A stretch of 64,000 bases of DNA from positions 1 through 64,000 of the IMG/VR virus record IMGVR_UViG_3300031707_002920, one strand, 5' to 3'. The position numbers were made by a program, and so were the translations under genes. This DNA is from a virus. This document shows, one piece after another, positions 10,305-59,900 of this stretch. A model generated the notes under the pieces. It was not told the DNA's origin. It saw only the letters and a program-made list of their open reading frames with translations, and searched no databases. Each line of letters begins with the position of its first letter. The stretch's first letter is position 1.

Positions 10305-10365
10305 CTTAGATAGTTGTATGATTCAATTGACGATGATGATTAATGATCTTTGAAATTAAGTAAAT

Positions 10366-10439: not shown

Positions 10440-10512
10440 CTTACATTCTGATTGCACTTGCAAATGACTTATCTTTTTGTTTGATAGTTCATATCTATCT
10501 AAGGAGGTAGAT

Positions 10513-21025: not shown

Positions 21026-21186
21026 AGTGCTATGCTAAAATACTTCAAGGTTGTTCGTCTTGAACGAGAGGTTGCCGCCTTAAAAGCGGAGTTGACTATG
21101 ATTCTTCTTTTATAATTTGATAATTTTATATTATTGTGAGCTTAATCTACGATATTTAACGTGATTATTAATTTAAAAGGATTATC

Positions 21187-30795: not shown

Positions 30796-31207
30796 GGGGG
30801 TGTAAGGTTTCGACAGATTGGGTGAAGTAACAGTTGCATGTAGAGGAAATCACTGGTTGGCCTCTTAAATCATCCGGTGAACTTTAACTGCCAACACAGG
30901 TGCAGTTCTGGGTGCAAAATTCGCAACACAGTTTGCTGTTCTTTGCGGATTGACCTCCCAGGTCAGCGTTGCTTAATTTAAAAGCAACAGAGTTTTAGTG
31001 AGAGCCACGGTAGCTAAAACTTCAAGTAGTGTGGATAGGACAACCGAATCGCAGTAGAGAAGGGGACCGAAATGACGTCTGCGCCTCTTACTTGTGAAGC
31101 TTGCTGATTCTTAGTAATAAGATAAGAGGAAGTTACAGAATCAGATAAACATGTAGTAACTGTTATAGAGCACATTCTGGACAGGGGTTCAATTCCCCTC
31201 ACCTCCA
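30796..31207 (+). ncRNA. ssrA: tmRNA
   Basis: GGGGGTG...TTCGAC 5' end, GGGG-TTCAATT-CCCC-TCACCTCCA 3' end with G3-U70; tag ORF 30890-30976 after TTAACT. Confidence 0.92.
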
Positions 31208-37668: not shown

Positions 37669-38793
37669 ATGAGAATTGGCTATTCAGCATGGGGATTTAT
37701 AGGTGATGGACTCGTAGACTCTCCAGACGGTGGACGTTTAACAAGAGCATTGCTTATTGAACACTTACTTAAAGAAAACTACGACATTATGTGGTTACAA
37801 GAAAATCGTGATGTCGATTATCATAGCATGCCATTATTTAGGCTCTCAGTAAGTAAATCTTACAAAGATGAACAAAGACAAACGCTTTGTAAAATAAAAT
37901 ATGATAATGGTTTTCCACAAATTGATGTATTATTCCTTGAATGGCGATGGAAAATACCGGGCAGGAATTGTGACGTTTCTATTGAAGATGCTAAATACAC
38001 TCCAGATTATGATAGACAGACGCAATTACTATTACATTACATCAACATGTCAACTAAAATTATCATTTGGGATAAGGATGAAAAACTCACTTTTAATGAC
38101 GAACATTGGCTTGATCATCATAAGAAGCATCAATTTCAAGTCACAATATTGTCGCCTGCGATTTATCCTCCTAAGATAATCTTCGAACGAAAAACGCTAT
38201 TGTTTCCGTGTCAGTTAAGTAAGATAAAGGGCACTAAAATAAACAAACGATACGAATATCTTATTGGTTATGTTGGTTCTCAGTATGAGCGCGATGACCA
38301 GATCTATAAATATATCAATCCTTTTTCTTTTCAATGGGCTCAATTAACTAAACAACTGCAAGTGATATTTGTCGGCAATTGGTTAAAATATGATGATCAG
38401 GCTAAGAGAAATTTAGTCAATTTTCCGCATATTAAATTTGAAGATAGAATCTTACCAAAAGATATGGGAACTATTTATAGTAAATGTTTGGCTTCAGTCT
38501 TATTATGCAAACAAAACTATGCACGGCATTGTCACATAACACAGAGGATTTATGAACTTGCAATGAACGGCGTGATTGCTATCGGCCTTAAAGAGCAAAT
38601 AGACATTGATAAATTTATTAATAAGTCACTCATAATTTCAGATGCTTATGATCTTGTACAAGTGATCGACATGCTGCGCAGGTCGTCAATTGATTTTCGA
38701 CAGCAAATATTAGATGAGCATATCGAAAGATTAGAACCATTTGATATAAACAATGTCATGAACAAGTTTAGAGAAGTACTAAGCCATGCATAG
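37669..38793 (+). CDS. GT-B-fold glycosyltransferase, candidate DNA-modifying enzyme
   Basis: IGYVG.QYERD, ITQRIYE; replication context. Confidence 0.65.
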   Translation: MRIGYSAWGFIGDGLVDSPDGGRLTRALLIEHLLKENYDIMWLQENRDVDYHSMPLFRLSVSKSYKDEQRQTLCKIKYDNGFPQIDVLFLEWRWKIPGRNCDVSIEDAKYTPDYDRQTQLLLHYINMSTKIIIWDKDEKLTFNDEHWLDHHKKHQFQVTILSPAIYPPKIIFERKTLLFPCQLSKIKGTKINKRYEYLIGYVGSQYERDDQIYKYINPFSFQWAQLTKQLQVIFVGNWLKYDDQAKRNLVNFPHIKFEDRILPKDMGTIYSKCLASVLLCKQNYARHCHITQRIYELAMNGVIAIGLKEQIDIDKFINKSLIISDAYDLVQVIDMLRRSSIDFRQQILDEHIERLEPFDINNVMNKFREVLSHA

Positions 38794-40405
38794 ATTTGAC
38801 CAAAAAAATGTGTCTGATTTCTTTCCGTATCCGACATATAGACAGTATCAATTAGAGACCATTAATAAAATTCAACAACATTTTGTTGATGGTGTTAAAG
38901 ACATTATTATAGAGATGCCTACTGGTTCTGGAAAATCGCCTGTAGCAATTGCATGTGGATTATGGTCAGAGAATTCTTATTGTTTAACTTCACAAAAAAT
39001 CTTGCAAGATCAATATATTAAAGATTTCACTGAAGATTACAGGATTTCTGTGTTGAAAGGTCGCAGCAATTATGAGTGCACATTTTTGGGTGATCCTGCA
39101 ATGTGTAACGAGTGCTATGAACCTGCCAGAAAGCAATGTTATAAAAACGGAACGTGCCTTTATCAGATTGCTAAGAAAAGAACAATTAATTCTATTATAG
39201 CGTTGATGAATTATTCATACTTTCTGAATGTGACAGATTGTGATCCTAATAAATCGTTCGGTAAGAAGAAATTGTTGATTTGTGACGAGTGTCACTCGCT
39301 TGAGGGCGAGCTTATGGGGCAGGTCGAGTTCATTTTATCAGAATTTATGTTTAAGCGATCAGGGTATCCTGTTGCTATTCCCACATATGAATCATTAGAT
39401 CAATATGAAGCGTGGATAAAAGAAAATATAGAACAAGTGCAAGCGATTTTAAAGAAAAAAAATGATGAGTTAGATAGTTTGAATAGACAGCGAGTGAGTC
39501 TTAGTCGTGAATCTTTTAATTTTAAAAAAATGTCAGGAGAGACGGCTGAACTAGTGTCGCAAGTTGAAGAAATTGATCGTCTTTATCGACGAATGAATAC
39601 GTTTTTGAATACTATAGGTTTAGTTGAATGGGTGTTTACGGTCGAAAGAACTGAAAAATTAAAGATGAAGAAAGTGATTTTTAAACCATTGACGATTAAT
39701 TTATTTGCACCCGATTGTTTATTAAATTACGGTGAACAACGACTTTACATGTCAGCTACTATTTTAGATAAAAAGAGTTTTTGTCATAGTCTTGGTATCA
39801 ATTGTGATGAAGCTGCTTTTATAAGAGTGCCATCAACGTTTCCTGCTAAAAATCGGAAGATATTTTTTACAAATTCTGGTTTTATGAACTTAGCGAATAT
39901 CGACGATACGTTACCAAATATTGTCAGAGACTTGAAAAAAGCACTGGCATATCATAAGTCTGAAAAAGCACTAGTGCATTGTCATTCATATAAGATTGCA
40001 AATTACATACAAGAAAATTGTCATGACCATCGGTTGATTTTTCATAATTCAGAGAATCGTGAAAAGATGCTTCAAAAGTTTATGCAATCGACAGATCCTA
40101 TGGTTTTAGTTTCGCCGTCTATGACTGAGGGTCTTGATCTTAAAGATGACTTAGCACGTTGGGAAATTATAGTCAAAGTACCGTATTTATATTTGGGTGA
40201 TAAACAAGTATCTAGAAGAATGGCAATTGATCCTGATTGGTACAATTGGCAAACATGCCTGACACTGGTTCAGAGTTACGGTCGCATTTTTAGATCAGAG
40301 ACTGATTGGGGAACAGTATATGTATTTGATAGTGGAGCAAGAGGATTTATACAACGTAATGTAAGTATTTTACCACAATGGTTTATCGACGCTTGTCAAT
40401 TTTAA
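38786..40405 (+). CDS. DinG/Rad3-like SF2 helicase
   Basis: PTGSGKS, LKGRSNYEC, DECH, MSAT, EGLD, QSYGRIFR. Confidence 0.9.
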   Translation: MHRFDQKNVSDFFPYPTYRQYQLETINKIQQHFVDGVKDIIIEMPTGSGKSPVAIACGLWSENSYCLTSQKILQDQYIKDFTEDYRISVLKGRSNYECTFLGDPAMCNECYEPARKQCYKNGTCLYQIAKKRTINSIIALMNYSYFLNVTDCDPNKSFGKKKLLICDECHSLEGELMGQVEFILSEFMFKRSGYPVAIPTYESLDQYEAWIKENIEQVQAILKKKNDELDSLNRQRVSLSRESFNFKKMSGETAELVSQVEEIDRLYRRMNTFLNTIGLVEWVFTVERTEKLKMKKVIFKPLTINLFAPDCLLNYGEQRLYMSATILDKKSFCHSLGINCDEAAFIRVPSTFPAKNRKIFFTNSGFMNLANIDDTLPNIVRDLKKALAYHKSEKALVHCHSYKIANYIQENCHDHRLIFHNSENREKMLQKFMQSTDPMVLVSPSMTEGLDLKDDLARWEIIVKVPYLYLGDKQVSRRMAIDPDWYNWQTCLTLVQSYGRIFRSETDWGTVYVFDSGARGFIQRNVSILPQWFIDACQF

Positions 40406-40453
40406 GTAGAGCAGCTATATCAATCTACGCAAAGCAGGTTGATTATAAAAGTT

Positions 40454-40669
40454 ATGAGAACTACAATTGAAGTAGCTCCTGATAAACGAAGAATTTGGCG
40501 ACAATGGTGTAAGAAATTTAAATTAAGTAGTGTAAAGTTATTTGATAAATTAATTGAGAAGATCGAGCAACGACAACAACAAGAGTTTTATAATTCATTG
40601 CCAAGACCTATAAAATATGTTAAGCCATTGGAAAATAAAAGAATTAGGAAATTTGTATACAAAAAATAG
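40454..40669 (+). CDS. Small basic protein, ribbon-helix-helix-like (duplicated at 41457-41672)
   Basis: MRTTIEV...IWRQWCKKFKLSSVKLFDKLIE. Confidence 0.6.
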   Translation: MRTTIEVAPDKRRIWRQWCKKFKLSSVKLFDKLIEKIEQRQQQEFYNSLPRPIKYVKPLENKRIRKFVYKK

Positions 40670-40689
40670 GTTCATATAATAACTAGTTG
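40653..40689 (+). promoter_or_regulatory. Sigma70-type promoter abutting an attI-like cassette insertion site
   Basis: TTGTAT-16 nt-TATAAT, then AACTAGTTG; the two repeat copies diverge right after this GTTG. Confidence 0.7.
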
Positions 40690-41283
40690 CACGCAATAGG
40701 CCGCGAACCATGTTGGAGGTGAATTTTGGAAACGAGAATTATTCGTAACGCCAGTTGTAAATGTAGCGATTGCATGGGACCGGAGCGGGGTATCTGCCCT
40801 CGTAAGGGTTTCCAAAATTCACGGAGCACTAAGGAGTCGCGGCCTACAGTCCGGCGAAACGCCCGTGCAACAGACAAAGTGCGCCATGTAGATGATGGCC
40901 GTGTCGTTCCAGTAGATGGGTATGGTCAGCACAGCCACCCCGATTTTTTTCACGATTGATTACGGCGCACGTTTGTCAACCGTTGTTTGCAATTGTCAAT
41001 TTCTCTTATATACTGAGGTGGCGCTATGATGACAGAACGGTGCGGAAGGTGTGCGAATCTAAGTGGGTTATGTGCTATGGTCGGCTGTGGTGGCTTCGTC
41101 GAGAAAGCGCCACTGGAAGCTGTGGAAGAAATTGCCAACAGCACACAACAAACCAATGGCGCAGGGGCTGAAGCCACATTACCGCCCAGGTGCCTCATCA
41201 CTGGTTGTTACGACGATGCAGAACCTACATCTGTGTTCTGTGCGTGGCATAATATAGGGCGGTAACGTCGCCATTGGTCAAAC

Positions 41284-41380
41284 GTTGTAAGAAATGCTGG
41301 CCGTTCTGAAATTATAGGGCGGCGGCAAAACCAAAACAAGGAGAAAACATGAAACGCATTATCGAGAAGTACGACCACCA
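41284..41380 (+). repeat. Truncated copy of the cassette beginning at 43177
   Basis: 97 bp identical to 43177-43273. Confidence 0.93.
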
Positions 41381-41692
41381 ATGGTTTATCGACGCTTGTC
41401 AATTTTAAGTAGAGCAGCTATATCAATCTACGCAAAGCAGGTTGATTATAAAAGTTATGAGAACTACAATTGAAGTAGCTCCTGATAAACGAAGAATTTG
41501 GCGACAATGGTGTAAGAAATTTAAATTAAGTAGTGTAAAGTTATTTGATAAATTAATTGAGAAGATCGAGCAACGACAACAACAAGAGTTTTATAATTCA
41601 TTGCCAAGACCTATAAAATATGTTAAGCCATTGGAAAATAAAAGAATTAGGAAATTTGTATACAAAAAATAGGTTCATATAATAACTAGTTG
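41379..41692 (+). repeat. 314-bp direct repeat, copy 2
   Basis: Identical to 40376-40689. Confidence 0.95.
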
Positions 41693-41731
41693 TCGGAAAT
41701 TCCGCGCAGGTTTTATGATTGGAGGCGGCGC

Positions 41732-41962
41732 ATGAGAGATAGTGATTTCAAACGCAAATTGTTCTGGGAGTGCATCGACAATCTGGGATCGAAGGGGCGT
41801 AGCAGCGCCGCTAAACTGGCGGAACCTGCGCTCCACATCCCACAACAGGGCCAGCACAAAATTTGCCCTCAATGTGGTGGCAATCTTGTGGAGATGTATC
41901 AGGCTGATGTTTACATTTGCAATGATTGCGGTATCAAGGTTACGGGCAAACTTCGTGCGTAG
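41732..41962 (+). CDS. Cassette ORF, Zn-ribbon protein
   Basis: GGAGG RBS; CPQCG...CNDCG. Confidence 0.6.
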   Translation: MRDSDFKRKLFWECIDNLGSKGRSSAAKLAEPALHIPQQGQHKICPQCGGNLVEMYQADVYICNDCGIKVTGKLRA

Positions 41963-42015
41963 CCCGAACCGTTGTATGCAACCGGTCACGCGACCATATT
42001 GTAAAGGGGCGACAA

Positions 42016-42339
42016 ATGACAATCATCCAGGCGTTATCAAGCATTCGCGGTGAGTTGGAGGAAGCGGAGCGCAAGTTCCCCTCGTTTCCTACAGACCCGG
42101 TACACGCCGCCGCAATAGTGGTTGAGGAAGCTGGTGAGCTACAACAGGCAGCATTGCAGTTTACGTATGAAGGCGGCGGCTGGGCTGAGTTGCACAACGA
42201 GGCTGTGCAGGTTGGCGCGATGGCGCTCCGCTTTCTTTGTCACATAGATTCGATGAAGAGTCGTCCCTCCGAGCAGGTGGAGCGCGTGCCCGGCAGCATA
42301 CAACAGGGCCAGCACGAAACGGCGGCTGACAAGGGGTAG
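42016..42339 (+). CDS. Cassette ORF, MazG-like nucleotide pyrophosphohydrolase
   Basis: HAAAIVVEEAGEL...EAVQVGAMALRF. Confidence 0.75.
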   Translation: MTIIQALSSIRGELEEAERKFPSFPTDPVHAAAIVVEEAGELQQAALQFTYEGGGWAELHNEAVQVGAMALRFLCHIDSMKSRPSEQVERVPGSIQQGQHETAADKG

Positions 42340-42451
42340 GGGATTATAGGCCGCCGCATCGTGCGAGTGGCCCGGGACGTTGTAAGAAATTCGCCCCGCT
42401 TTGAGAATATTTAGGCGAGCGCGAAAACCAAAAACAAAAAAGGAGAAACAA

Positions 42452-42787
42452 ATGCAAGCAGGACCGGTATCGATATTTCAGTCCCCGAATATTGTAAGGG
42501 ACCTTCGTGTCTTGCCCGAGTTTAAGACCGTTGCACAACAATTTCGAGATGATTTAGGGCACAAAATGGTGGAGCACAAAAAGAAAATCAAAACTGACGG
42601 TAATAAACTGTGTGGATTTATTGTGTCTCCTGAGTACAAAGCTATGTTACTTACTTTTTGCCAGGACCTTGTTCAGCTACCTACTATTATGGGTGAGTTA
42701 CCTATGCTGTACGGGATGCCCATTGAAGATGGAGAGGTCTCAAATATCGCGTTCAAATTTGAAAAAGACGCGCTCGCAGGACACTAA
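42452..42787 (+). CDS. Cassette ORF, hypothetical
   Basis: AGGAG RBS inside the cassette frame. Confidence 0.65.
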   Translation: MQAGPVSIFQSPNIVRDLRVLPEFKTVAQQFRDDLGHKMVEHKKKIKTDGNKLCGFIVSPEYKAMLLTFCQDLVQLPTIMGELPMLYGMPIEDGEVSNIAFKFEKDALAGH

Positions 42788-42800
42788 GGAGGCGGGGCGA

Positions 42801-42886
42801 ACATCTTACAACACAGCAAGGGATGCCAGAAACGCAGGACATTAAGGATTGAATTTTATTATAGGCGTTTCCAGCACCCGTTGCTG
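42801..42886 (+). repeat. attC-like site, identical to 43629-43714
   Basis: 86-bp exact repeat; CAGCAAGGGATGC...GCACCCGTTGCTG hairpin. Confidence 0.9.
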
Positions 42887-43241
42887 AACGCGTTGGTTGA
42901 AATTCCAGTCGATTTATTTTATTGAAAGGTTGCGAATTATGTTTGTTCCAATTTGGCTGCTTATCGTCTTATCGGGGTTTGGTTGCTGGGGCACACTTAT
43001 ATTCATCAATGCCATTCGCAACAGGAAATCTAAGGTGGTATCTCCTTCCGCATTCGCACAACAGGCAAAGTGTGCCATGCTTCCGTGTCTCGGCTATTTA
43101 GAATCTGAGTGTGAAAATTGTAGCAACTACAATCTGTACCGTAAACCGTAGCGGCACGGCACACATTTGCCGAACCGTTGTAAGAAATGCTGGCCGTTCT
43201 GAAATTATAGGGCGGCGGCAAAACCAAAACAAGGAGAAAAC

Positions 43242-43592
43242 ATGAAACGCATTATCGAGAAGTACGACCACCAGTTTATCAAAGATGGTAAGCGCATTTT
43301 CTGTACCTATGTTACTGTGCCATTTTCAGAGTTGCCTGAAGACTGTGATTTTTCTGGATTGGATGTGTCTATTATCAACGTGCTGTATGATGACTGTCAC
43401 ATCGCTGTTACGGGGTTTGATAGCAATCAAAACGGTATCTCAGTAGAGATACCCCCTACGCTGAAATTTCTATTTTATAAGGCAAGGGAGCAAGGTCAAG
43501 CGGTGTGTGCTGAATTGCTGACGAAGCATAACTTTGAAACAAACTGCATCAAGTTCAAAAAGGATATAGGGTACAGTAACACGGTAGCATAA
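43242..43592 (+). CDS. Cassette ORF, hypothetical
   Basis: AGGAG RBS. Confidence 0.7.
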   Translation: MKRIIEKYDHQFIKDGKRIFCTYVTVPFSELPEDCDFSGLDVSIINVLYDDCHIAVTGFDSNQNGISVEIPPTLKFLFYKAREQGQAVCAELLTKHNFETNCIKFKKDIGYSNTVA

Positions 43593-45503
43593 GAGAGCCG
43601 CCGCCAAGACATTAGGGATACGGCCAGCACATCTTACAACACAGCAAGGGATGCCAGAAACGCAGGACATTAAGGATTGAATTTTATTATAGGCGTTTCC
43701 AGCACCCGTTGCTGGGCGTTGGTGGAAATAAACTTTTCTTTGGAGGTTATATGTTTGCCGAATTTGACAAGGTGATTAGGTGCCTTGCGTTGGAGTTACC
43801 CGAGTCCGTACATGCCGATGTTGTGGCGAAGTACGGCAAACTGAAAGCTGAGGTGGAAAAGTTTACATCCACCAACAGCGCTATGGATGCAATAAACGCT
43901 TACATTAAGGAATATGATAGCAAGCTGATTACTACTCCCGATGAAAAATGTGCATTGGCGGTGTGTGAATTTACGGATAAGTATGCTAATATTTTTAGGC
44001 GTTTACTGCACCAGTAGCGCAGACGTTGGGTGCAATTCGCGCCCGACCATATGATAGGCGGTTTCGCTATGAAGATATGTCGAAAGTGTAGTATCGTTTA
44101 CGAGAATCGTACTTGCCCGCTGTGTAATCTGCGCAAGCACGATAATCTTGTCCACGACTTCATCGAGTCAAAGGGACGAAGTCTTGTTCGGGAGTTGGTA
44201 GCCTATTTGCAGCACCGCGAAACCGCAGCAGATAGCGGAGCGGGCGCGAACAGCACCCAACATTCGCAGCACAAAAGTTGCCCTACATTCAACCGAGATT
44301 GTCATTTCTCTGTTGTCAAGATACAGTGTACGAATGCCGGAGATTGTCCATGTTAAACGGGCAACCTTCGTGCGGTGCGGTGAACGTTGGTGTAAATTTC
44401 GGTCGCTCTAAAACACGAATTATAGGAGGCGCAAAAATGTCAGGAACGATTTATCATACGTGTTCGGTATGTGGAAGCGAAATGTATCCGAAGATTGGAG
44501 GGCGATCAAACGGCGACACCATAACAGAGTTTGTCATGGTGCCGTGTAAGATTTGCGCCTCTGAAAAAGAGGAATCCGCTCCCTCCGCATCCACCAACAG
44601 CGCTATGGTGTCATTGTGCTTAAAATGTAAATATACTTTTTCTTGTATAATGGCTGGTGAACACGTGCGAGAATCTTGTCCTACAAATGAGTTCGCACAA
44701 CGGCACCAGTAGCGCGGACGGTGGTGTAAATAAACCGCGCTTGGAGGTTATAGGTGGCCGCCGATGAAGTGCTTCGATTTATGATCCGATGGTTTGCGCG
44801 ACACGATACGCCGCCGACGGTTCGCCAGGTATGGAAAGCGGCCACGAAAGCAGCGGAGGCGCGGTTTACATCCACCAACAAAGCAAGTGCGCCATGCCCA
44901 CAGTGTGTAGATTTTGGCGCTATTCCGCCGCTTGTCAACTATTGTAAAACCTGTGGCCGTAAGCTACATGAGCACGGCGCACGTTGCTGAACCGTTGTAA
45001 GAAATGCTCACCATTTTTGAATTTATGGGTGGGCGCAAAAAGGAGACCTAATGCAGAACGTTTACGATGTTTTAAAATACAGGTTGTCTTTTATCTATGT
45101 TGTGTTAGCCTACACCTATTTGGTGTTAGCCTACATTTTTTGTATCATCATTAGTCCTTTGGGATTATTTTTAATGCTTTTTGAAAAACCTAAAATATGT
45201 TGTGTATGTAATAAGCGTATTGGTAAAAAAGAAGCTTGGACAAGTTATATTCATAGACCTGCTCATTATTCGTGTGTAGAAAACAAATGGTCATACTGGT
45301 ATCAATTTGGCCCTATGGATAATCCTGATTATTGGCGTTATTTAGGTAGGAGTGCGCCCACAGAACAATAAGGAAATGGTGAGCACATCTTACAACAAAC
45401 AAATGGTGCCGAAGACTAAATCGTGAGTACACGACTTCACCATTTGTTGGACGTTGTACGCAAGTTTGGCGGTTCTGAATTTGATAGGCCGCCGAGGAGA
45501 AAT

Positions 45504-45877
45504 ATGGCATACCTTCATTGTCACAAGTGCGGCTGGTCACAGGATGATTTTTGGTATTGGCGGTGGTCTGGCCTCAAACAGTTTTGGAGGTGGCGGCATA
45601 TGCCATTTGGCTATAATCCCGTTTCTCTTATTCTCGAAGATTTTGCCGAATACTGGAAGCCGCGCATGATAGGAATGGACTGTGTTTGGGCGCGTGAAAA
45701 TGGTTTTAAAAGTAGTAATATTTTTCTTGGCATATTATGCTTTGGTCAATGGGTCGTCATGCGCGGCGTGTATTTAGTCAACGGTGGTGGTTTGACGATC
45801 AGTTTAAACGGGATTATAAAAACAATAAGGCCAAATGTCCTTCGTGCAAGTCACCAGATGATTTTGATATAGACTAA
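45504..45877 (+). pseudogene. Cassette ORF with a frameshift near 45720 (Zn-finger protein)
   Basis: MAYLHCHKCGWSQDDFW...; alternative frame continues FSWHYMLW...AKCPSCKSPDDFDID*. Confidence 0.6.
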
Positions 45878-46628
45878 TCGGCGGCAGAAGAATATTGAAA
45901 CCGCCAAACCAGACGTACAACAGCCGCAGCTTGAAACGGCTTTACACTAATGATTATGTTTTTGTAGGCCGCATCAAGCGTGCGGCAAACGTTGTAGTCA
46001 ATGCCGTGCCGAGTCTTTATTGTAGGTGCGGCCATAAGGAGCAAGTATGTTTTCATGGATGCATCGTGGTAAAGTTGAACGACCTATGTCCGAATTTCAT
46101 GCCGAGTATATGGCCACACAGAGAGCAAAAGAGGAGTCGGCACGTCACAGCCTACAACAGCTAAAGGCTGAAATTGCCGCTACTATGCTTCCAGCTATTG
46201 TGGCATTAAGTAAAGGTGATATGATTACAGTCGCTAAATGTATTGACGAACTGCGGCAACTATCAGCCGTTTAGCGAACGTTGGTTGAAATTCCAGTCAT
46301 GCTTTTTATGTTTGGAGGCGAACATGCTGTACTTTATCATAGGATGTCTAATAATCGGGTTGTTTATCTCGTTTTCAATAGGTTGGTGGTGTGGCGAACG
46401 GCATGTTCGCAGAAACACTATGGTAGGCATTCCTTCCACATCAACCAACAGCAAAAGTACGCCATGTAAATGCACCTCAGTGCCGTTGGTAATATCTGAG
46501 AAGTGTAGATGTCGTATCTGTGGTCGAGTGTGGGTTCAGTAACACGGCGTACATTTTGCGGACGTTGTAAGAAATGCGGTTGGCTCTGAAAATTATAAGC
46601 CGCCGCTAAAATCAAAACAAGGTATCAC

Positions 46629-47024
46629 ATGAAATTATCATCCTGCTCTCAAAAATTATATGGTAAACCTTTTTCAGATCTCACAGACTCTGAAAAAATA
46701 ACAGTTAGAAAAGAAACTGCAAAATTAACTGTAGAAGAAGAACTCGAAAAACAAACCAAACGCGAACAAGAGTGGCATGACAGAATCGAGGATCCTGGAC
46801 AATGGTTCTGCCCCCGATGCGGTCATAAACTAGAACCGGTAAGCAAGGACAATGAAGACTGGGGAGATTTTTGTAGCGGATACCATGAGGAGCACGGCAC
46901 TTTCTGGTTTCTATGCTCTAACAAAGACTGCACTTACAGTGAGGCTCCTCTTGTCGTCCATCATCCTGTTTATGGATGGCAATGCAGATCAGGAGATAGT
47001 TGGGCTATTGGTTACGTCAAATAA
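46629..47024 (+). CDS. Cassette ORF, Zn-ribbon protein
   Basis: FCPRCG...CSNKDC. Confidence 0.65.
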   Translation: MKLSSCSQKLYGKPFSDLTDSEKITVRKETAKLTVEEELEKQTKREQEWHDRIEDPGQWFCPRCGHKLEPVSKDNEDWGDFCSGYHEEHGTFWFLCSNKDCTYSEAPLVVHHPVYGWQCRSGDSWAIGYVK

Positions 47025-47066
47025 AGGCAGCGGCGGCGGGAAAGTAAGGAAGCCAACCGCACATCT

Positions 47067-47127
47067 TACAACAAATGCATGGCGGGGAGTACCCGCAAAT
47101 TTGGAGTACCAAACTTCGCCATGCATC
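47067..47127 (+). repeat. attC-like site, near-identical to 48389-48449
   Basis: ATGCATGGCG...CGCCATGCAT hairpin, one substitution between copies. Confidence 0.88.
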
Positions 47128-47169
47128 GGACGTTGTAGTCAATTGTCGAGCGCAAAGAAAGGAAATTAT

Positions 47170-47400
47170 ATGCCCGCCGAAGAATTGCTTCCGTGTCGTA
47201 AATGTGGGGCTCCTGCTGCGCCGATAGCTCCACCGAAAGATGGCTGGTCGTGTTTAATACACTGTTCAAAGTTTTGCGGTTATCATGAGCATGAAGGAAC
47301 GGTAGAGAAAACGGTTCTTGCGTGGAATCGGCGGGCGGACACTAAGGAGTGCGCTCGCCAACAGCCTACAACAACCGTATGCCAAAATGTCGACGAGTAA
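47170..47400 (+). CDS. Cassette ORF, Lar-family (restriction alleviation)-like Zn finger
   Basis: ELLPCRKCG...IHCSKFCG...AWNRRA. Confidence 0.65.
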   Translation: MPAEELLPCRKCGAPAAPIAPPKDGWSCLIHCSKFCGYHEHEGTVEKTVLAWNRRADTKECARQQPTTTVCQNVDE

Positions 47401-50400
47401 CCGACGTGACTATGAACGCTCAGATTTTCAGTTCCCTGAGAAAACACGGAAAAGATATGTTGGATGTCTCCTGCTTAGCTAAAGAATTAAAAAAGGGTCT
47501 TATGGGGACGATGTGGGGTGCTCGCGTGTGGGTTCATAGAGATGCTACAGAAATTAGGTGTTACGGAGAAAATAGTGTTGAGTTTGAAAAGCAATTCCCT
47601 TTTCTCAAGGAGTCTAAAAGAGTTCTCAAAATTAAAGACTAAAAGCCACAAACGAAGAGAGAGGAGGGATGTGATGAGCCGGTCGTACTTTACAACACAG
47701 AAAATTTCACGTAAGATATTTCCTAATAAAGTGGGAGATAGCATCCTACTTAAAAATGGAGAAAAACTAACTATTGGATCAGATAGAAAGGATATATCTG
47801 GATCATTCTATCTGACGGATGGGATAGCAAGTGTGTGGTTGTATTTCGATAAGGGCCTTCTCTCTATGTACGATATAAACAATACATTTGCATGGAATGG
47901 TACTGGAGAGCCATTGCTGAAAAAAATCCGATCATACGTGCGCAAACCAAAAGCAAAAGAGGCACGTCCTGTGCCTAAGAGCCGCCACAAGGACACTATG
48001 GTAGCGCGAAAAATAGCAGCCAACAGCCACAGCCCAAAACAGTGGAAGTTGACTAAGGACTAATTTTATTATAGTCCGCTGCATCGGGCGTGCGGCGGAC
48101 GTTGTACAAAATTTAACCGCGTCTTGGATTTATAGCCGGGGCGCAAAACAGGAGAAAAACATGAAAGACACAGAGTTGAGAATTATCAGCGACGGTACTG
48201 TTGCTGGCACACAGGTGGTGGATTCTAAAGGTAACAGGGTCAAATTAGTACAGAAAATAAAATGGGAGTTATCCCTATCGTCTGGTATATCTAAAGTTAC
48301 ATTGGAAATTGCCAAAACACCTATTGATGTCATCGCCAAAAAAGCAAGAGCGCCCCGGAGGAACATTAAGGAACGCGGTTAAACTTCGTACAACAAATGC
48401 ATGGCGGGGAGTACCCCCAAATTTGGAGTACCAAACTTCGCCATGCATCAAACGTTGTGCGAAATAACCGGCGAACCATATTGGAGGCGCGAATGATTCA
48501 CAAACACGATCTGCGTACCGCTATCAGCGATCTCGGGCAGGCTCTGGAGCATGTCGAGCACTATAGTGGTAGGCCGGAAGTTTTTTGCCTTAAGCAGCTT
48601 TTGGTCAATCCACTTTCGTACGCGCAGAACAATGGGAGTCGCCGGTTACATCGCACAACAGCGAAAGTGCGCAATGTCAACACAATTTTCAAGAGTCTAT
48701 TTGTATTCGCTGTGGTAAAAAATTGTGATGCCACAGCGCACGTTTCGCGAGACGTTGGTTGCAATGGTCTTCTTAAATTTATTATAGGCGGCGCAAATGG
48801 CAATTCCATTTTTCAAATGTAGTAAACATGGTGTTGTGAAGTTCAGGGTTATTCACGAGTGCGAGGTATGCGCCGCTGAAAACCGCTGTACTCAGCCCAC
48901 AGACAACCAACATACGCAGCTTGCAATTGCAGCTCTTCGCGGCGCGTTGTCTCGGTTGCCCGTCAATCTTGGCATGGTAGATCAGATATTGGTTGCCTTC
49001 GAGGAAGAGCTGCAACAGCAAGCGAGTGCGTAAAACGTTGGCCGAAACTCCACGGCCAAAACGAATATAGATAGGCGGCATTATGCGGCCAAAGCGCCGC
49101 ACTGCGCATAATCGCGGGCGTTGTACGCAATGGGCTTCTTAAATTTATTGGAGGTGGTTGCTTATGTCAAAATGCAATAGTTGCGGTCGTGAGCCTCTTG
49201 AATATGTAACAAGGTGTGTGCGTTGCGGAGCGGCGCAACCACTGGAAAGCAGCGGTACTCAGCCCACAGACGTACAACAGCTAAAGGCCGAAATCGCCAT
49301 GTGTGCGGCGTTGCTTGAGCCTTTATTCGGGGCGACTGAGGAACAAAGTAAGGTCATTACCGATGTCACGCAAAGACTGTGGCGACTATCAGCCGTTTAG
49401 CAAACGTTGTATGCCATTTACATTTTCTCGGAGGTTATAGGCACATGGCTATATGCGGTACGAATCAATGCGTAGAGTGCGAGCTGTATATACACTGCAT
49501 ACGACATGTGCGCGACGTAGTTCCGCCATGTGCAAAAAATGTAAACCAGCTAAAAGCCGAAATTCGCGCATTGCTAAACGACAATTGTGAGTTTTACGAA
49601 AGTAACGCTTCGTTAAGTAACATTAGCGCGTTTTTGTTCAAATTGCGCGAACTATCGGCTGTTTAGCAAATCGTTGTGCGCCATTAGAACCAGTCTTTAT
49701 ATCGAGAGGTAAAACATGTTTGCTTTGCAGTTAGTAGCACTCGTGCTGATTCTGTCTGCCGCTGCCCTCATAGTTACGATGCTTTTATTGGGTGTCGTAA
49801 GTTCGTTTTCGTCAAGTAAATGGTTCTGTACATCAATGGGTTGGCATCGTCAGCCAGACTCCATAGGCTTTGATGGCTGCTCGATGCTTGGTTGCTGTCC
49901 TCGGTGCGGCAAACATGTTTTACTGGATAGTCAAGGTAACTGGTTCTAACAGCGCACAACAAATAGACAAGGAGATTTATATGGCGCGCAAGATTGTAAA
50001 GTTCGATGTTCAGCAGGTGCCGAATGATTATTGGAGTCAGTGTCACTACATATCGTGGTGTCTGTGCGACGACGGTACTATGTGGGAATTGCAAGATAAT
50101 GAAAGCGCGTGGCGTCAGTTGCCTGTACCGGGGTGCGCGCCGGACACTGTGGAAGGCGCAAATTTACATCCACCAAGTGTGCCAGTTTGCCCTTCATGGT
50201 GTAAGGATACGTCAAGTGGTACGTGGGGGTGTTTGAAGGGCAAACCAGCACACATTTTGAAAGGTGGCGATCATGTCAACAGACATTAACGTAGGTTTGG
50301 GAGAGTTTAAACTATTAGAGAGATTTGTGGTAGCTATGGAGCGAATCGCCACCAAACTGGAGGAAATCGCTCCTTCCACACCAACTAACAAAAGTGTGCC

Positions 50401-51275
50401 ATTATCTAAAACTAGTTATAAATTTCCAGAAACTGGAGTCTTTTTGGATATCCCTGTCAAAGCTCATTGGGTTCATAAAAATGTTAGTGAGATGAAAGAG
50501 GTCCGTATTTTTGGTAACATTTTAAAACTGGCTGAAACTTATGACATAATGATAACGCGGTCAGATTCTGAAAAATTGGTAATTTATATCGATGAGCCAG
50601 GAAAAAAATTCCGAATAAGAGGTTAAAAGGATATTTTATGATCTGGATAGAGGTAAACAATTTGGAATTATTGTCAATGTGGAAACAATGTGTACTTTTT
50701 AGAATTGGAGGGTGCAATGAAAGTTTTGCCGTTGTGTGATACGTCTGGACACGATATGGAGATTGTTGCTGAAACAGACTTTGAGGCGGAGTGGCTTAAA
50801 TGTCATTTCAAGGTTTGGCGCGGTGTAGATGGATTTGTTGATGATACAACAGTAGGTGGTGTTCGCCTCAAAGTCAAGAGCGCATGGTGGGATTGCACTA
50901 GAGCACTGGCGGAAGCGCACACACAGCCTACAACAGCGCCATGCGGTACGGGGCAGAAGCCCCAAATTGCCGAAGCGTCAACTTCCGCATAGCGCAAACT
51001 TGGAAGAAAAATGAAACTTACATCGTTTGCGTAACTCAGGCCGGTTCGTGATGCAGCGATGCGTGTCGTTGAGGCTCAAACAGCGCCTCAATGCCGCTAT
51101 TGTTTAAGCTTCATTGATGATTCTCATAAATTTATAGTTTTAAACTGTATATAGTAGCTAAAAATGTGTACAATATAAACTAATATCCCACTCAGGTATG
51201 TCGTATTTAAATACTCTGTTTGTGGTAGTTTTTAATGTAATCACATGAATATGAAAAACAAAACAGAAGAAGAAA

Positions 51276-52535
51276 ATGAAACTCGTACACAAATTTAACT
51301 ATAGAAAGAAAAACATTGAGCTGGATACTTTGTGTAGAGTGTCTAATGATATCTATAATCAAGCGAATTATACCATAAAACAGGAGCTAAATAAATCTGG
51401 TAAATGGATACGATATAACGAGCTAGACCAAATAATGAAAGTCACAGAGAATCTAGAGCACGAGATAAATTATAGGAAACTAAAAGCACAGGCGGCTCAG
51501 CAAACATTAAGGATGCTGGATAAAAACTGGAACTCTTATTTCAGAGCACTCAAACCGTTTAAAAAGGATCCCAATAAATTTACCGGTCAACCGAGACCTC
51601 CTAGATTTCTAAAACGTGGGAGCATAAATTTACTAGTTTATACTAATCAATGCTCCCAAATAAAGGATAATAAAATAGTATTAGAAGAAAACATATCCAT
51701 AGGAATACCCGAGGTAGATAAAGATTTTAGTAAATTTAATCAGATAAGAATTTTGCCGAGAAAAAATAGATATGAGATAGAGATAGTCTATAGCGTAGAT
51801 TGTGCCAATTTAGAACTAGATCAGAACAATTATTTATCAATAGATTTGGGAGTCAACAATTTAGCGGCTTGTATTTCTAAAGATAAATCTTTTCTTTTAG
51901 ACGGCAAACCTATTAAGTCTATAAATCAGTTTTTTAACAAAACTCTTGCAAAGAATAGATCTTTCAGAGACAAAAAAGGAGGCGGAGCATGCCGTAGAAA
52001 ATCAAACGAACTAAGTAATTACAGAGAGTTTTTTATCAGGGATCAGTTTCATAAAATGACGAGGCTTCTTGTAAATTATTGCATAGTGAAAAACATTGGT
52101 ACTATAGTTTGTGGGTATAATAAGCGATGGAAAGACTCCATCGATATTGGTAAAGTTTCGAATCAGAAGTTTACCAACATACCTCATAAACTATTTTTGA
52201 AGATGTTAAAATACAAATGTAATTTAGTAGGCATTGTGTTGATTTGTAAAGAGGAGTCATACACATCTAAGTGCGATGGACTAGCATTAGAGCCCGTAAA
52301 AAAGCACAAAGTTTACTTGGGCAAGAGGATTAAGAGAGGGCTTTTTCAGAGCTCTGTTGGAAAGCTTATCAATGCTGATATTGGTGGGTCTTTAAATACA
52401 CTTAGAAAAGTAATCGGTGATGGTTCCTTTATCAGGGATCTAATCGATAGTGTGGTTCTGTTTAACCCAGTGAAGATAAGGTTTGCGGATTTAAGCTGCA
52501 AGCAGACTCTTTCAAATTTTTTGGTTAGATGTTAA
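51276..52535 (+). CDS. tnpB: Stand-alone TnpB (IS1341-like)
   Basis: YNQANY, SIDLGVNN, IVCGYNKRWK, EESYTSK, NADIGG. Confidence 0.9.
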   Translation: MKLVHKFNYRKKNIELDTLCRVSNDIYNQANYTIKQELNKSGKWIRYNELDQIMKVTENLEHEINYRKLKAQAAQQTLRMLDKNWNSYFRALKPFKKDPNKFTGQPRPPRFLKRGSINLLVYTNQCSQIKDNKIVLEENISIGIPEVDKDFSKFNQIRILPRKNRYEIEIVYSVDCANLELDQNNYLSIDLGVNNLAACISKDKSFLLDGKPIKSINQFFNKTLAKNRSFRDKKGGGACRRKSNELSNYREFFIRDQFHKMTRLLVNYCIVKNIGTIVCGYNKRWKDSIDIGKVSNQKFTNIPHKLFLKMLKYKCNLVGIVLICKEESYTSKCDGLALEPVKKHKVYLGKRIKRGLFQSSVGKLINADIGGSLNTLRKVIGDGSFIRDLIDSVVLFNPVKIRFADLSCKQTLSNFLVRC

Positions 52536-52740: not shown

Positions 52741-53709
52741 ATGCTGCGTTGTCAAGAATCTGCGAAGCTTCAGCTCAAGCAAAGTTTCAAAAAAGTCATT
52801 CTGATAGATGCAAATCATTTATTGAGCAGGACATTTCATGTACCGTCATTTCAAAATTTAAAAGCTACAATTGATGGCAATGAAGTGTTCACTGGCGCTA
52901 CGTACGGTTTCTTATGGTCGCTCAAAAAAATAGTAGATACACATAGGCAACTTAATGATGTATTAATAGTCGTCTGGGACGGTGGCGGTAAAAATTTCAG
53001 GCACGAACTTAGTGCAGACTATAAAGCTACTAGGGCTAAAAAAACACCAGAATTCTTGTTCCAAGTCGGTCTGACTAGGGACGTACTGAAAACATTAGGA
53101 ATAATGCAGTGTCAGATGCCTAATACAGAAGCTGATGACATTATCGGCGTATTGACAAAGCAAGCTAGATTGAAAGGTTATAAAGTCCTCATCATTTCGG
53201 GCGATAAGGATTTCAACCAATTAGTCAGTAACAATGTTTCAGTATTACATCCCGGTTCTGGTCAAAGTGAAGATAAATTGATGACCCCTGATGTGATTAA
53301 AGAAGAGTATGGTATTTCGCCCAATCAATTTATCGATTGGTTAACTTTACAAGGAGATGGTTCGGATAATATCGCCGGAATCGAGGGTATAGGTAAAAAG
53401 ACTGCGTCAGAATTGATTCAATGTAATGGTACGATAGAGAATATAATTAGTTCTGATATTCATTACAAGTTTAATCGGAAAGGGTTAAAAAAAGAAATAA
53501 GTGATAACTTGCAACAAAAGATAAACGCATCTAAAGATAAGCTTAAATTATCAAAACAATTAGTGACAATTAAGACGGATATAAAAGATTTAGACGTTAA
53601 TGTAGAACAAAGTAAGCCAGACTTCTCTCATTTAAGAGATTTATTTAAGACGTATAAGTTTTCTACGATCTTGCAAAAATTCAATGAATTCATAACTACG
53701 TTTTCATGA
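52741..53709 (+). CDS. 5'-3' exonuclease/flap endonuclease (PolA N-terminal family)
   Basis: LIDANH, YKATR, EADD, SGDKDFNQL, GDGSDNIAGIEGIGKKTA. Confidence 0.93.
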   Translation: MLRCQESAKLQLKQSFKKVILIDANHLLSRTFHVPSFQNLKATIDGNEVFTGATYGFLWSLKKIVDTHRQLNDVLIVVWDGGGKNFRHELSADYKATRAKKTPEFLFQVGLTRDVLKTLGIMQCQMPNTEADDIIGVLTKQARLKGYKVLIISGDKDFNQLVSNNVSVLHPGSGQSEDKLMTPDVIKEEYGISPNQFIDWLTLQGDGSDNIAGIEGIGKKTASELIQCNGTIENIISSDIHYKFNRKGLKKEISDNLQQKINASKDKLKLSKQLVTIKTDIKDLDVNVEQSKPDFSHLRDLFKTYKFSTILQKFNEFITTFS

Positions 53710-55657: not shown

Positions 55658-55851
55658 TTCATTTTTAACAGCACTTACAGCACTTTTTAAAAAATATTCA
55701 AAAAAACAATTAGCGACAATGTCATTTGTAGAATTTACGATCTTGCGAGCGGGAAAGCCCACGACTTCAGTCGTGGGATGAAAGCGAGCAATAGATAAGT
55801 CGAACTCTTCTATGAAAATATAGTATATTAGATAAACGGGAGGTATCTAAT

Positions 55852-56247
55852 ATGCCAAGATGGGACAAGTCAAACAAGGCGACCTATAATTTGGGATACC
55901 ACTTAATCTGGTGCCCCAAGTACCGACGCAAAGTCTTGGTTGGAGATGTAGAGAAAAGACTCAAAGAGCTGTTCCATGAAAAGGCAAAGGAGCTTTCTAT
56001 TTCTATTGAGAAAATGGAAGTCATGCCCGATCATGTTCATCTTTTCGTTAAATGCTCTCCAGTCAATTCTCCTCATCTGATCGTAAAGCACCTCAAGGGA
56101 TACAGTTCGAGAGTGATGAGGATAGAGTTCCCAAAATTGAAATCAAGACTCCCGTCACTGTGGACCCGATCCTACTACTGTGAATCGATAGGTCACATTT
56201 CAGAAGAGACAATCAAAAAGTACATCGACGACCAAAAGAACAAATGA
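55852..56247 (+). CDS. tnpA: Y1 HUH transposase
   Basis: YHLIWCPKYRRKVL, PDHVHL, LWTRSYY, YIDDQ. Confidence 0.96.
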   Translation: MPRWDKSNKATYNLGYHLIWCPKYRRKVLVGDVEKRLKELFHEKAKELSISIEKMEVMPDHVHLFVKCSPVNSPHLIVKHLKGYSSRVMRIEFPKLKSRLPSLWTRSYYCESIGHISEETIKKYIDDQKNK

Positions 56248-57269
56248 TCCTCACAATCAAAATCAAACATGGAGTAGACCTATCTGTCGAGCTTGAAAAG
56301 GCTCGCCGGATAGCTGTGTTTGCTTTGAAGACTGGATCACGTAGCTCGAAGGACGTTAAACACTTCGGTCTGAAATCAGCGCTGTCAAATCAGGTGCTCA
56401 AAAAGTACAGCGCGAATAAAAAGCTCAAGAGAGTCAGTCGTGTCAAGCTCACGGTGCCTAACCAGTCTGTCAAGGCTGAATCTGAACAACTCTCTATCCC
56501 CTGTCTGAAGCTCAAACTCCCCACTGAGCACTTCAGGTATGAGTTTCAGAAAATCAACCAGATAGAACTCGACAAGACATACGCCTATATTACCGGAGAG
56601 GTCAAAGAGCCGGATCTGATTAAGTCTGAGAAGCACCTTGGTGTTGATCTGAATACCAAAGGCCACTGTGCTGTTATTGGAATTCCTTCTACTGGTGATG
56701 TTATTAAGCTTGGAAAGAAAGCTCTCCACATTCACACCAAGTACAAAAGCATCAGAAGGAAACTACAGAGCAAGAAGAAGTATAGGAAGCTCAATCAGAT
56801 CAAGCGAAGAGAGTCAAATATCGTCCGAGATTTGAATCACAAGATTTCAAAGAAGATAATCTTAACTGCAAAGGAGAATGGCTGCTCGATTAAGTTGGAG
56901 AATCTCAAGGGAATTCGAAACAACAAAAAACAAGCTCGATCTTTTAAGTACTCCTTATCCTCTTGGTCTTATTTCCAACTACTGACGATGATTCAGTACA
57001 AGGCCAAAAAGTTTGGAGTAGATGTAGGCTTAGTTGATCCCCGCTACACTTCAAAAACGTGTAGTAGATGCGGGACTATAGGCATACGGCAAGATAAGAG
57101 CTTCACGTGTCCGTCATGTGGGCACGTAGATCATGCGGATGCTAATGCTGCCTTTAACATTGCAGCATGGCCTCTAATTGATCCATTGCATACAGACAGA
57201 GATGTATGTAAAGGGAGCACTGATGCCCCGCAATGTGGAGTAGCCTTATCGAGCGGCGTAGCCGCATGA
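56244..57269 (+). CDS. tnpB: TnpB RNA-guided nuclease (short N-terminus)
   Basis: GVDLN, LENL, TSKTCSRCG, CPSCG, ADANAAFNI. Confidence 0.94.
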   Translation: MILTIKIKHGVDLSVELEKARRIAVFALKTGSRSSKDVKHFGLKSALSNQVLKKYSANKKLKRVSRVKLTVPNQSVKAESEQLSIPCLKLKLPTEHFRYEFQKINQIELDKTYAYITGEVKEPDLIKSEKHLGVDLNTKGHCAVIGIPSTGDVIKLGKKALHIHTKYKSIRRKLQSKKKYRKLNQIKRRESNIVRDLNHKISKKIILTAKENGCSIKLENLKGIRNNKKQARSFKYSLSSWSYFQLLTMIQYKAKKFGVDVGLVDPRYTSKTCSRCGTIGIRQDKSFTCPSCGHVDHADANAAFNIAAWPLIDPLHTDRDVCKGSTDAPQCGVALSSGVAA

Positions 57270-57453
57270 TGAGCGCAATGGACACAAGAACCCCACGACT
57301 TTAGTCGTGGGAGTACGTCAGATAAAATAACTAAGCGTATTCTTTTATTTAAGCAATATTTAAAAAATTATAGTAGATAAAAACGTATACTATATAAATT
57401 ATTATCATACTCAAGCGCATTACGTTCAGCATTCTGTTTGCGAAAAGGATAAC

Positions 57454-59727: not shown

Positions 59728-59900
59728 AATTTCGTTTTTTAAAAGATGTCACAGTTTATAGTTGCATAATAATATAGATTTTAGTAAGTTATCATCATTT
59801 TTGAATAATTAAATTATGAACATGCGATGAGCCACAATTCACAAGGTTTTAACTCTCGATGGTTATGCTCACTAAAAATAATTGTTGACAATAAACTGGA

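Follow-up and report, generated by a model that had tools for sequence, protein, structure and literature searches.

A likely phage-borne, integron-like gene-cassette platform in a viral replication region

How does a phage come to carry a long run of small, GC-rich, cassette-like units among its replication genes, and what moves them? The question is raised by a window of 64,000 nucleotides (nt), the first 64 kb of a linear virus entry of 85.9 kb in IMG/VR (IMGVR_UViG_3300031707_002920), whose completeness CheckV puts at 43%, so that 57% of the genome is missing. The backbone has a GC content of ~33%, with every large gene on the + strand, and encodes within the window a primase, an SF2 helicase, a 5'-3' exonuclease and an intein-split DnaE. 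A 12-kb insert separates the helicase (38786-40405) from the exonuclease (52741-53709), with the primase and DnaE nearby. The core of the insert, at 40686-51003, is a GC-rich island (44-50% GC); every 1-kb bin across 41001-51000 has a GC fraction of 0.44-0.50, versus 0.27-0.36 in the flanks. An initial annotation, made from the letters alone, had called this island an integron-type array of cassettes that recombine at a GTTG core through an enzyme supplied in trans. We conclude that it is likely to be a phage-borne, integron-like gene-cassette platform.

Starts located by reading the sequence and by script define 25 units beginning with GTTG, followed by a decayed tail at 49966-51003. Units open with the motif GTTG-NNN-N-[A/C]AAT and end with ACA[T/G]C-NNN-CAAC; between these lie a leader, a ribosome-binding site (RBS) and an open reading frame (ORF), and after CAAC an imperfect hairpin of 64-156 nt extends to the next GTTG. 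Nearly all units carry an RBS and a single + strand ORF of 70-131 amino acids (aa), and a promoter and terminator scan of the cassettes gave no consistent per-cassette signal. With strict criteria, a self-pairing scan of the 10.3-kb array recognized 12 units, and it also picked up a solitary cassette at 20729; control loci totaling 1.66 Mb yielded five units, never two in one locus. The array is therefore far beyond chance, and the observation is real. Thus, the ~10-kb cassette array described by the initial annotation was borne out, with 25 units. Small corrections apply: several starts lie a few bases away from the place a reader would pick, the unit at 49037-49119 is empty, that at 41284-41378 is truncated, and the last ~1 kb consists of decayed sites.

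The ends of each unit pair with one another. The first 22 nt matched the reverse complement of the same unit's end at 16.6 of 22 positions on average, versus a mean of 9.2 and a maximum of 12 for the end of the upstream neighbor. The inverse core is thus complementary to the unit's own 5' end and not to the adjacent core, as first proposed, and the pairing spans 20-44 nt. Units of the long-arm type (GTTGTAAGAAAT...) show complementarity of up to 44 nt; they form two stems, whose sequences vary between units while the complementarity is kept (inverted repeats I1-I17).

The two nearest relatives by helicase, L053 (82% identity) and L054 (68%), lack the array. Both keep the order from helicase to exonuclease, and the interval holds 2.8 kb and 1 kb, respectively, of other sequence, with no GC island and no units.

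The modularity of the units was visible when contigs from four sediment runs, each of a different study (X1-X4), were aligned to 40000-51500. The backbone was covered in X1 only, at a depth of ~42, and X1 is probably the source sample of the phage; cassettes were covered in X2-X4 too, and up to a depth of 391 in X1. The fifth unit, U5, was found from core to next core (41969-42382) with 0 differences in a 799-nt X4 contig (record 27) with unlike flanks, and a 311-nt X4 contig (record 31) is an exact copy of U9 (43718-44028), likewise bounded by the two cores. These GTTG-to-GTTG copies from another study support the proposal that mobile cassettes are exchanged at the GTTG core. A contig seen in X1 and X3 joins a U5-type hairpin exactly to position 40686, so that the first unit, U1, is preceded by a hairpin elsewhere. 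U8 and its truncated copy U3* have different upstream hairpins. Many other joints connect the leader end of a unit to the start of its 3' frame; the intervening sequence is not visible to the method, and these joints would fit the same end frames bearing other cargo.

Three other accounts of these contigs were considered and rejected. Against an assembly chimera, independent X1 contigs match parts of the array with 0 differences and cross from it into the backbone on either side, at depths of 38-50 (backbone, 42). A main crossover at CAAC, raised by the polarity of the hairpin bulge described below, would have the upstream hairpin travel with the ORF; it is contradicted as the main mode by the layout of the array, with its bare GTTG start and hairpin end, by the hairpin difference between U3* and U8, and by the GTTG-to-GTTG exact copies in X4. 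Lastly, an X1 joint that runs from 49125 to 48100, going back 1026, was considered as the junction of a U19-U22 circle; given its depth of 107 versus 42 for the backbone, it probably comes from other genomes and is not read as a circle.

We then considered how cassettes enter the array. Its left edge has no hairpin and reads ...GTTCATATAATAACTA GTTG, and at its right edge a hairpin is followed by TTGG, with a G missing, and a GC-rich stub. A bare core on the left and a hairpin on the right are what is predicted by an entry site plus n repeats of core-gene-core-hairpin. An attI-like entry site (...GTTCATATAATAACTAG, then TTG) lies at 40648-40689, and a second copy at 41651-41692. The 314 nt that end at the entry junction (40376-40689), comprising the last 30 nt of the helicase gene, a small ORF and the entry site, are repeated exactly at 41379-41692 (repeat D1, 300 nt at 100%). 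The first cassette is U1 after copy 1 and U4 after copy 2; between the duplicated segments lie U1, U2 and a 95-nt piece of a second U8 copy, which a short microhomology joins to the 3' end of the helicase gene. That an attI-like entry site occurs twice, with a different first cassette each time, supports the idea of a phage capture platform.

The small ORF directly upstream of the entry site (40439-40669; AT-rich, 71-76 aa) has no Pfam or NCBIfam match and is absent from L053 and L054. It is duplicated within the array (40439-40669 and 41442-41672). In another contig, G001 (locus L052, - strand, ~14283-14083 and ~11390-11190), a small gene likewise precedes the array and has a second copy inside it. 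By eye, the small genes of the window phage and G001 look like ribbon-helix-helix proteins; neither had a family match.

The recombinase itself was sought in the whole record. Profiles for tyrosine recombinases (PF00589), serine recombinases and the A1 family described below had no match in the 85.9 kb, which represent 43% of the genome. The same junction is linked to a recombinase gene elsewhere. The last 20 nt of the window's entry site are identical (20/20) to the junction behind the recombinase gene of contig G020 (locus L079), with ~78% identity over ~50 nt; there, the recombinase stop codon is the TAG of ...GTTCATATAATAACTAG, then TTG, and the first cassette is a homolog of U18. G020 (32% GC) shares the primase, helicase, exonuclease and later genes with the window phage, in the same order and at 40-55% amino-acid identity, indicating that a distant member of the lineage of the window phage carries the enzyme at the same site. 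In G006, a 268-aa recombinase gene ends GGC GTA TAA TAAGAA GTTG..., and six cassettes directly follow. The motif CRTATAAT-N6-GTTR is kept in five junctions (alignment A2).

These recombinases belong to a family, A1, of ~33 proteins of 258-305 aa with at least 43% identity, whose alignment shows six invariant residues (R131, K156, H213, R216, H239 and Y248). Of its members, three are in IMG/VR (G006, G020 and G021), and a cassette start directly follows all three, with the array beginning at, or no more than ~40 nt from, the recombinase stop codon and the recombinase co-oriented with the array. As negative controls, we used 157 loci with distant Xer-like genes (at most 35% identity), among the metagenome matches listed; none had an array. 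A related-locus search with a single recombinase recovered only the query.

The recombinase aligned end to end with Pyrococcus XerA (PDB 4a8e, E 6e-29). With VchIntIA (2a3v), it aligned in two pieces (52-171 to 55-175 and 209-253 to 263-307), leaving unmatched ~50 aa of VchIntIA between residues 175 and 263, the region of the IntI-specific domain. Its NCBIfam scores were below the cut-offs for XerA (130 versus 220 bits), the integron integrase TIGR02249 (125.5 versus 265) and XerC (108 versus 335). To judge from these alignments, it is a compact XerA-like tyrosine recombinase without the IntI-specific insert. An IntI-family integrase with the additional domain was found neither in the 86 kb of the record nor, by the TIGR02249 cut-off, in the linked recombinase. 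Two claims of the initial annotation therefore stand: no integrase is in view in the 85.9 kb, and a tyrosine recombinase is to be sought out of view, given the same 20-nt junction at a recombinase stop codon in a distantly related phage. Its further claim that the enzyme acts in trans from the host or a distal source would hold as to supply from out of view. As to the supplier, another phage or the unsequenced 57% of the genome is likely, and not a bacterial integron, because the marker hairpin described below was not found in prokaryote genomes.

Could a cellular recombinase do the work? Host XerC/XerD, or another cellular Xer, might act on dif-like double-stranded sites with no phage enzyme needed. 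The entry site has a left arm GCGTATAA, a 6-nt center and a right arm GTTRNNNNAAAT, which has the look of the two-arm layout of a Xer core site such as E. coli dif, and most phages with an array encode no recombinase themselves. Xer-flanked gene modules are also known, such as the dif modules of Acinetobacter plasmids, in which genes flanked by sites form modules (PMC7399989). However, the inner-stem ("left arm") sequences of the cassette sites are wholly different between sites while their pairing is kept, and the unit ends covary over 20-44 nt, suggesting that structure rather than sequence is recognized. Moreover, three phages carry a dedicated recombinase joined directly to their entry site. 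We consider a host Xer unlikely; it might supply an enzyme in trans, but it leaves unexplained why the arms are conserved in structure alone. The phage system is like XerA and XerC/D-dif in the end-to-end alignment of its recombinase with Pyrococcus XerA and in the core-site look of its entry site; unlike Xer/dif systems, it has one partner site that is defined by structure and split between both cassette ends, arrays of up to 25 units, and a recombinase that is phage-borne and no chromosome-dimer resolvase.

We next compared the cassette sites with integron attC sites. In the commonest inner hairpin (72 sites), a spacer of 1-2 nt after CAAC stands against one of 4-5 nt before GTTG, followed by 5-6 base pairs (bp), and a single G or A is bulged on the 3' arm, next to GTTG on the coding strand. 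The paired "R" arm measures 12 bp or more, and a further covarying stem adds 10-30 bp. Across 43 distinct units from ~20 phage contigs, AA at positions 10-11 of the 5' arm faces CA on the 3' arm in 37. The AAC and GTT triplets are invariant; the cores read NNNCAAC and GTTGNNN with free N positions, where attC has RYYYAAC and GTTRRRY, and some sites in G001 have the canonical GCCTAAC...GTTAGGC. The aadA1 attC, read from plasmid R100, has the coding strand GTCTAAC-AATTC-GTT(C)AAGCCG(A)CGCCGC...CGGCGCGGCTTAAC-TCAAGC-GTTAGAT, with an extra C and A in the arm beside GTCTAAC (inverse core) and spacers of 5 and 6 nt. In canonical attC, it is the bottom strand that folds; RYYYAAC is cut between its A and C, and the site has two extrahelical bases spaced 6 bp apart (PMC7439510). 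The phage sites do not have this geometry of two extrahelical bases ~6 bp apart with spacers of ~5 and 6 nt. The position of the crossover suggests folding of the non-coding strand, in which case the cleaved arm, and not the opposite one, would carry the bulge, a geometry unlike that of IntI and attC.

This comparison bears on a second alternative, in which the array would be a classical integron remnant (CALIN) derived from a bacterial chromosomal integron and served by host IntI. Qi et al. (2023) reported 17 phage CALINs, each with at least two attC sites, and five of six tested sites were recombined by IntI1 (PMC9892861); the phage sites share the attC-like layout, with AAC...GTT cores, an unpaired spacer, a bulge and a variable loop of 64-156 nt, and the canonical cores in G001 add to the likeness. 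Such a remnant is nevertheless quite unlikely. The marker hairpin occurs in 19 phage contigs, whereas a scan of 185,579 prokaryote species genomes did not find it; the recombinase linked to the entry site lacks the ~50 aa of the IntI-specific region and scores below the TIGR02249 cut-off; the sites have an asymmetric spacer and one bulge, on the arm that is not bulged in aadA1 attC; and the recombinase is co-oriented with the array. In R100, intI1 and aadA1 are divergent, unlike the phage recombinase and its array.

The integron-type label of the initial annotation thus holds for the way of working and not for membership. The array works like an integron. It shares with integrons and CALINs the co-directional single-gene cassettes without a consistent promoter of their own, the folded imperfect palindromes, the pairing of the core before each site with the 5' end of the same cassette, and, with integrons, an entry site beside a tyrosine recombinase of the Xer/IntI branch. 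It falls outside integrons by IntI family, attC geometry and divergent intI: the recombinase stop codon abuts the entry site; the sites have a paired arm of at least 12 bp, the AA/CA mismatch and an extra stem of 10-30 bp, with one bulge on the other arm and spacers of 1-2 versus 4-5 nt; ORFs are translated through the site; and the pool is found in phage contigs only. Compared with the published phage CALINs (PMC9892861), the window array is far larger, at 25 units.

A third explanation takes the repeats for RNA or transcriptional elements (such as pairing of mRNA 5' and 3' parts, terminators or processing sites) that separate small phage genes duplicated in tandem. The pairing does join the leader to the 3' end of each gene, and all units are co-directional. 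However, the stems outside the AA/CA loop are almost purely Watson-Crick, with only 8 + 8 wobble-type mismatches in the 43 distinct units, and this near-absence of wobble pairs favors pairing as DNA rather than RNA; G.T and A.C mismatches are balanced (8 versus 8) and give no strand signal. A terminator scan detected no T-tracts or excess of terminators at the sites, and Rfam, which holds no attC family, had no match to them. In addition, the cargo ORFs are mutually unrelated, and identical cassettes occur in different contexts in other samples, breaking at the cores. A role in RNA is accordingly very improbable. Transposition of the units as single strands by an IS200/IS605-type system (Y1 TnpA and TnpB) hardly deserves credence: a TnpB gene lies 270 nt past the array and a complete IS605-type element 4.8 kb further, but the end hairpins of that element are unrelated to the cassette sites, and among 21 array-bearing records Y1 TnpA is present in two and TnpB in three, with neither in the five that are at least 90% complete.

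If the array is an integron-like platform, we envisage the following mechanism. A cassette would circularize, bringing its two ends side by side, and as single-stranded DNA it would fold into one long hairpin. From its base, this hairpin would comprise the variable outer stem, the AA/CA mismatch, the stem of GTTG-NNN and NNN-CAAC, the asymmetric spacer (1-2 versus 4-5 nt), the inner stem with one bulged base, and a variable loop that often codes for a C-terminal tail. A XerA-like recombinase of ~270-300 aa with the full catalytic set, for which the A1 family is the candidate, may then exchange strands at or beside the G of GTTG, either between a folded site and the entry site (...CRTATAAT-N6-GTTR) or between two folded sites. 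For the window phage, the source of the enzyme would be either the 57% of its genome that is missing or another phage or prophage resident alongside it.

Several points weigh against this account. The evidence for recombination is indirect and comes from contigs, which cannot show circles. The phage's own array is at backbone depth in X1 and shows no visible heterogeneity there. An X4 homolog of U4 (record 25) matches from GTTG to CAAC only, and a crossover at GTTG alone does not explain breakpoints at CAAC. In aadA1 attC, it is the other arm that carries the extra bases, so that the strand-choice geometry of IntI is not transferable. The linkage to a recombinase is known from three loci, and most arrays would need an enzyme in trans: of 18 records with the marker hairpin, two had a PF00589 match, and the other 16, including four that are 92-100% complete, had no tyrosine recombinase.

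Many cassette ORFs read through CAAC into the hairpin, with linkers such as TSTNS, QPTT and QQ... In one family, which served as our marker (CAACAGCTAAAGGCYGAAAT), the hairpins encode QQLKAEIA-(variable, ~26 aa)-LRQLSAV*, with the stop codon inside the closing stem. All 16 distinct marker hairpins with the closing GTTTAGC motif keep an open frame, with a length of 117-126 nt that is divisible by 3 in each case; eight further matches without this motif were left out of the count. Other hairpins encode Cys-rich zinc-ribbon tails. Because ORFs are translated through the site, the recombination site doubles as a C-terminal module.

The cargo ORFs are unrelated to one another, and few resemble known proteins. 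We compared 20 of them with Pfam and 10 with PHROGs. The U18 ORF is Lar-like (restriction alleviation; PF14354, E 3.3e-5), at 24.5 bits below the cut-off of 28.6; U4 (in its hairpin tail) and U17 had weak, sub-threshold zinc-ribbon matches, U9 weakly matched one domain of unknown function, and the 107-aa ORF of U5 matched PHROGs of unknown function. The remaining ORFs tested had no Pfam or PHROGs match.

In IMG/VR, the marker hairpin was found at 22 loci, spread over 19 contigs that range from 8 kb to 467 kb, and 10 of 21 marker-hairpin loci had at least two self-paired units. Its four matches in the 185,579 prokaryote species genomes were all due to chance, in ordinary coiled-coil coding sequence without arrays. 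A 16-mer, ACGTTGTAAGAAATGC, occurred at 49 loci in IMG/VR, of which 48 were chance matches; the sole real array was that of G001 (locus L010). These distributions leave room for a broader proposal, which we put forward tentatively: many unrelated phage lineages (29 kb to 467 kb, 31-48% GC) may share a private pool of mini-gene cassettes, which a compact XerA-like recombinase would move by acting on structure-specific folded sites, as a viral rather than bacterial analog of the integron, in which C-terminal tails (zinc ribbons and coiled coils) are possibly shuffled in addition to whole genes, given that the sites lie inside coding sequence, and most carriers would rely on an enzyme provided in trans by co-infecting phages or prophages.

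The individual units, all on the + strand, are as follows. U1 (40686-40981) and U2 (40982-41283; own-end match, 18/22) precede the truncated U8 copy U3* (41284-41378; repeat D8, 99% identical to 43173-43273), which is cut at the microhomology with the helicase 3' end, and the backbone duplicate (41379-41692). In U4 (41689-41970), the ORF continues past CAAC into the hairpin-encoded Zn-ribbon tail. U5 (41971-42378) is followed by U6 (42379-42891; inverted repeat I11), a long-arm unit starting GTTGTAAGAAAT with an own-end match of 19/22; U7 (42892-43176) has a small membrane-like ORF and poor own-end pairing. The hairpin of U8 (43177-43717; repeats D5 and I12) is 88% identical to that of U6. After U9 (43718-44024) come U10 (44025-44385; inverted repeat I16), U11 (44386-44719), which was read from the sequence, and U12 (44720-44993), whose core is mutated to GGTG. 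U13 (44994-45452; inverted repeat I1) has complementary ends of 44 nt. U14 (45453-45990) contains inverted repeat I3, U15 (45991-46279) has the hairpin-encoded tail QQLKAEIA...LRQLSAV*, and U16 (46280-46563) was read from the sequence.

U17 (46564-47131; inverted repeat I5) has end frames nearly identical to those of the solitary cassette S1 (20729-21110, + strand; own-end match, 20/22), which contains a different and more AT-rich ORF; the hairpin downstream of S1 looks decayed. The start of U18 (47132-48100), which carries the 76-aa Lar-like ORF, is 93-96% identical to cassettes in L079 (the first one) and L072. Inside the U18 site, between CAAC and the closing half-hairpin before 48101, lies a lower-GC stretch of ~0.7 kb (47401-48063) with two ORFs (76 and 129 aa; 47412-48063), which may be a secondary insertion into the hairpin loop.

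U19 (48101-48453; repeats D15 and I6) has a hairpin 93% identical to that of U17, and U20 (48454-48753) contains inverted repeat I2. The hairpin family of U21 (48754-49036) is seen again in a second array, at 85.2 kb of the full record (G000). U22 (49037-49119), the empty 83-nt unit, consists of a start and a hairpin remnant with no ORF. U23 (49120-49405) has a tail of the QQLKAEIA family, U24 (49406-49672) has lost the core preceding its hairpin, and U25 (49673-49965; inverted repeat I7) has a CAAC with no hairpin after it. The decayed tail (49966-51003) contains ORFs at 49981-50289, 50273-50626 and 50705-50992 and remnants of sites; its last hairpin is 50931-50999, where the end reads ...AAAC followed by TTGG, with a G missing. 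In the GC-rich stub past the last site (51004-51110), TTGGAAGAAAAAT resembles, by eye, a cassette start or an attI right arm.

The second array (85180-85903 of G000, 10180-10903 of locus L159) begins downstream of a gene for an AAA+ ATPase and is cut off where the contig ends; the first of its hairpins belongs to the U21 family. In G020, the recombinase, entry site and array come after a homolog of the gene just upstream of that AAA+ ATPase.

On the left, the array is flanked by the SF2 helicase gene (38786-40405, + strand; Pfam Helicase_C_2, ResIII and DEAD). On the right, ~270 nt past the array, is a solo gene for TnpB, an RNA-guided nuclease (51276-52535, + strand; Pfam and NCBIfam guided_TnpB, 134.8 bits), which is probably not part of the cassette system. 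Further on is the complete IS200/IS605-type element (55740-57320), just upstream of dnaE. It is GC-richer than the backbone and encodes a Y1 TnpA (55852-56247) and a 341-aa TnpB-sized ORF (56244-57269), and its end hairpins, CCCACGACTTCAGTCGTGGG and CCCACGACTTTAGTCGTGGG, match each other. DNA polymerase III alpha (57454-63431) is encoded by two ORFs, each with intein splicing domains: ORF 1 comprises PHP, NTPase and intein, and ORF 2 comprises NTPase, finger, intein and HHH; it may be a split or intein-interrupted DnaE.

Elsewhere in the window, 28 tRNA genes in several clusters and a transfer-messenger RNA (tmRNA) gene (30796-31207; tag ANTGAVLGAKFATQFAVLCGLTSQVSVA) lie within 10229-31207, as in huge phages. 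Between tRNA clusters, a 594-aa ORF (10477-12261) with a DUF559/Vsr-like endonuclease domain and several helix-turn-helix domains looks like a homing-endonuclease-like gene. The phage also encodes an M17 leucyl aminopeptidase (2310-3773; Pfam E 3.5e-100). A collection of phage GenBank genomes had no match to the backbone or the array.

Integrons are regarded as bacterial devices, and a full-text literature search did not find a phage-borne Xer-like cassette system. A close phage precedent concerns the hyperplastic regions of T4-type phages, where Arbiol et al., in 2010, reportedly described mobile PeSL regulatory cassettes, with small accessory ORFs between repeated stem-loops that would mediate modular shuffling. 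PeSLs, each an early promoter plus a stem-loop, are said to act through homologous recombination, and they are not known to have a conserved GTTG/CAAC core, own-end pairing or a dedicated recombinase. IS200/IS605 systems share with the phage array single-strand hairpin recognition and short conserved cleavage motifs, and one such element is present in the window; they differ in that their hairpins are unrelated, they form no tandem cassettes and their enzymes do not co-occur with the arrays.

The published phage cases are small integrase-less borrowings of bacterial attC, whereas the window array occupies 10 kb in a huge-phage-type replication module. New here are an array of 25 units, a duplicated entry site with two first cassettes, the identity of that site to a recombinase-linked one, and evidence for core-exact exchange across samples. 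A ~270-aa recombinase with structure-defined, translation-tolerant sites is also a possible tool. If our interpretation is true, viruses saw a second origin, or a second adaptation, of structure-guided, site-specific cassette exchange, and it could account for part of the turnover of small accessory genes, probably for host takeover or anti-defense, in phage hyperplastic regions.

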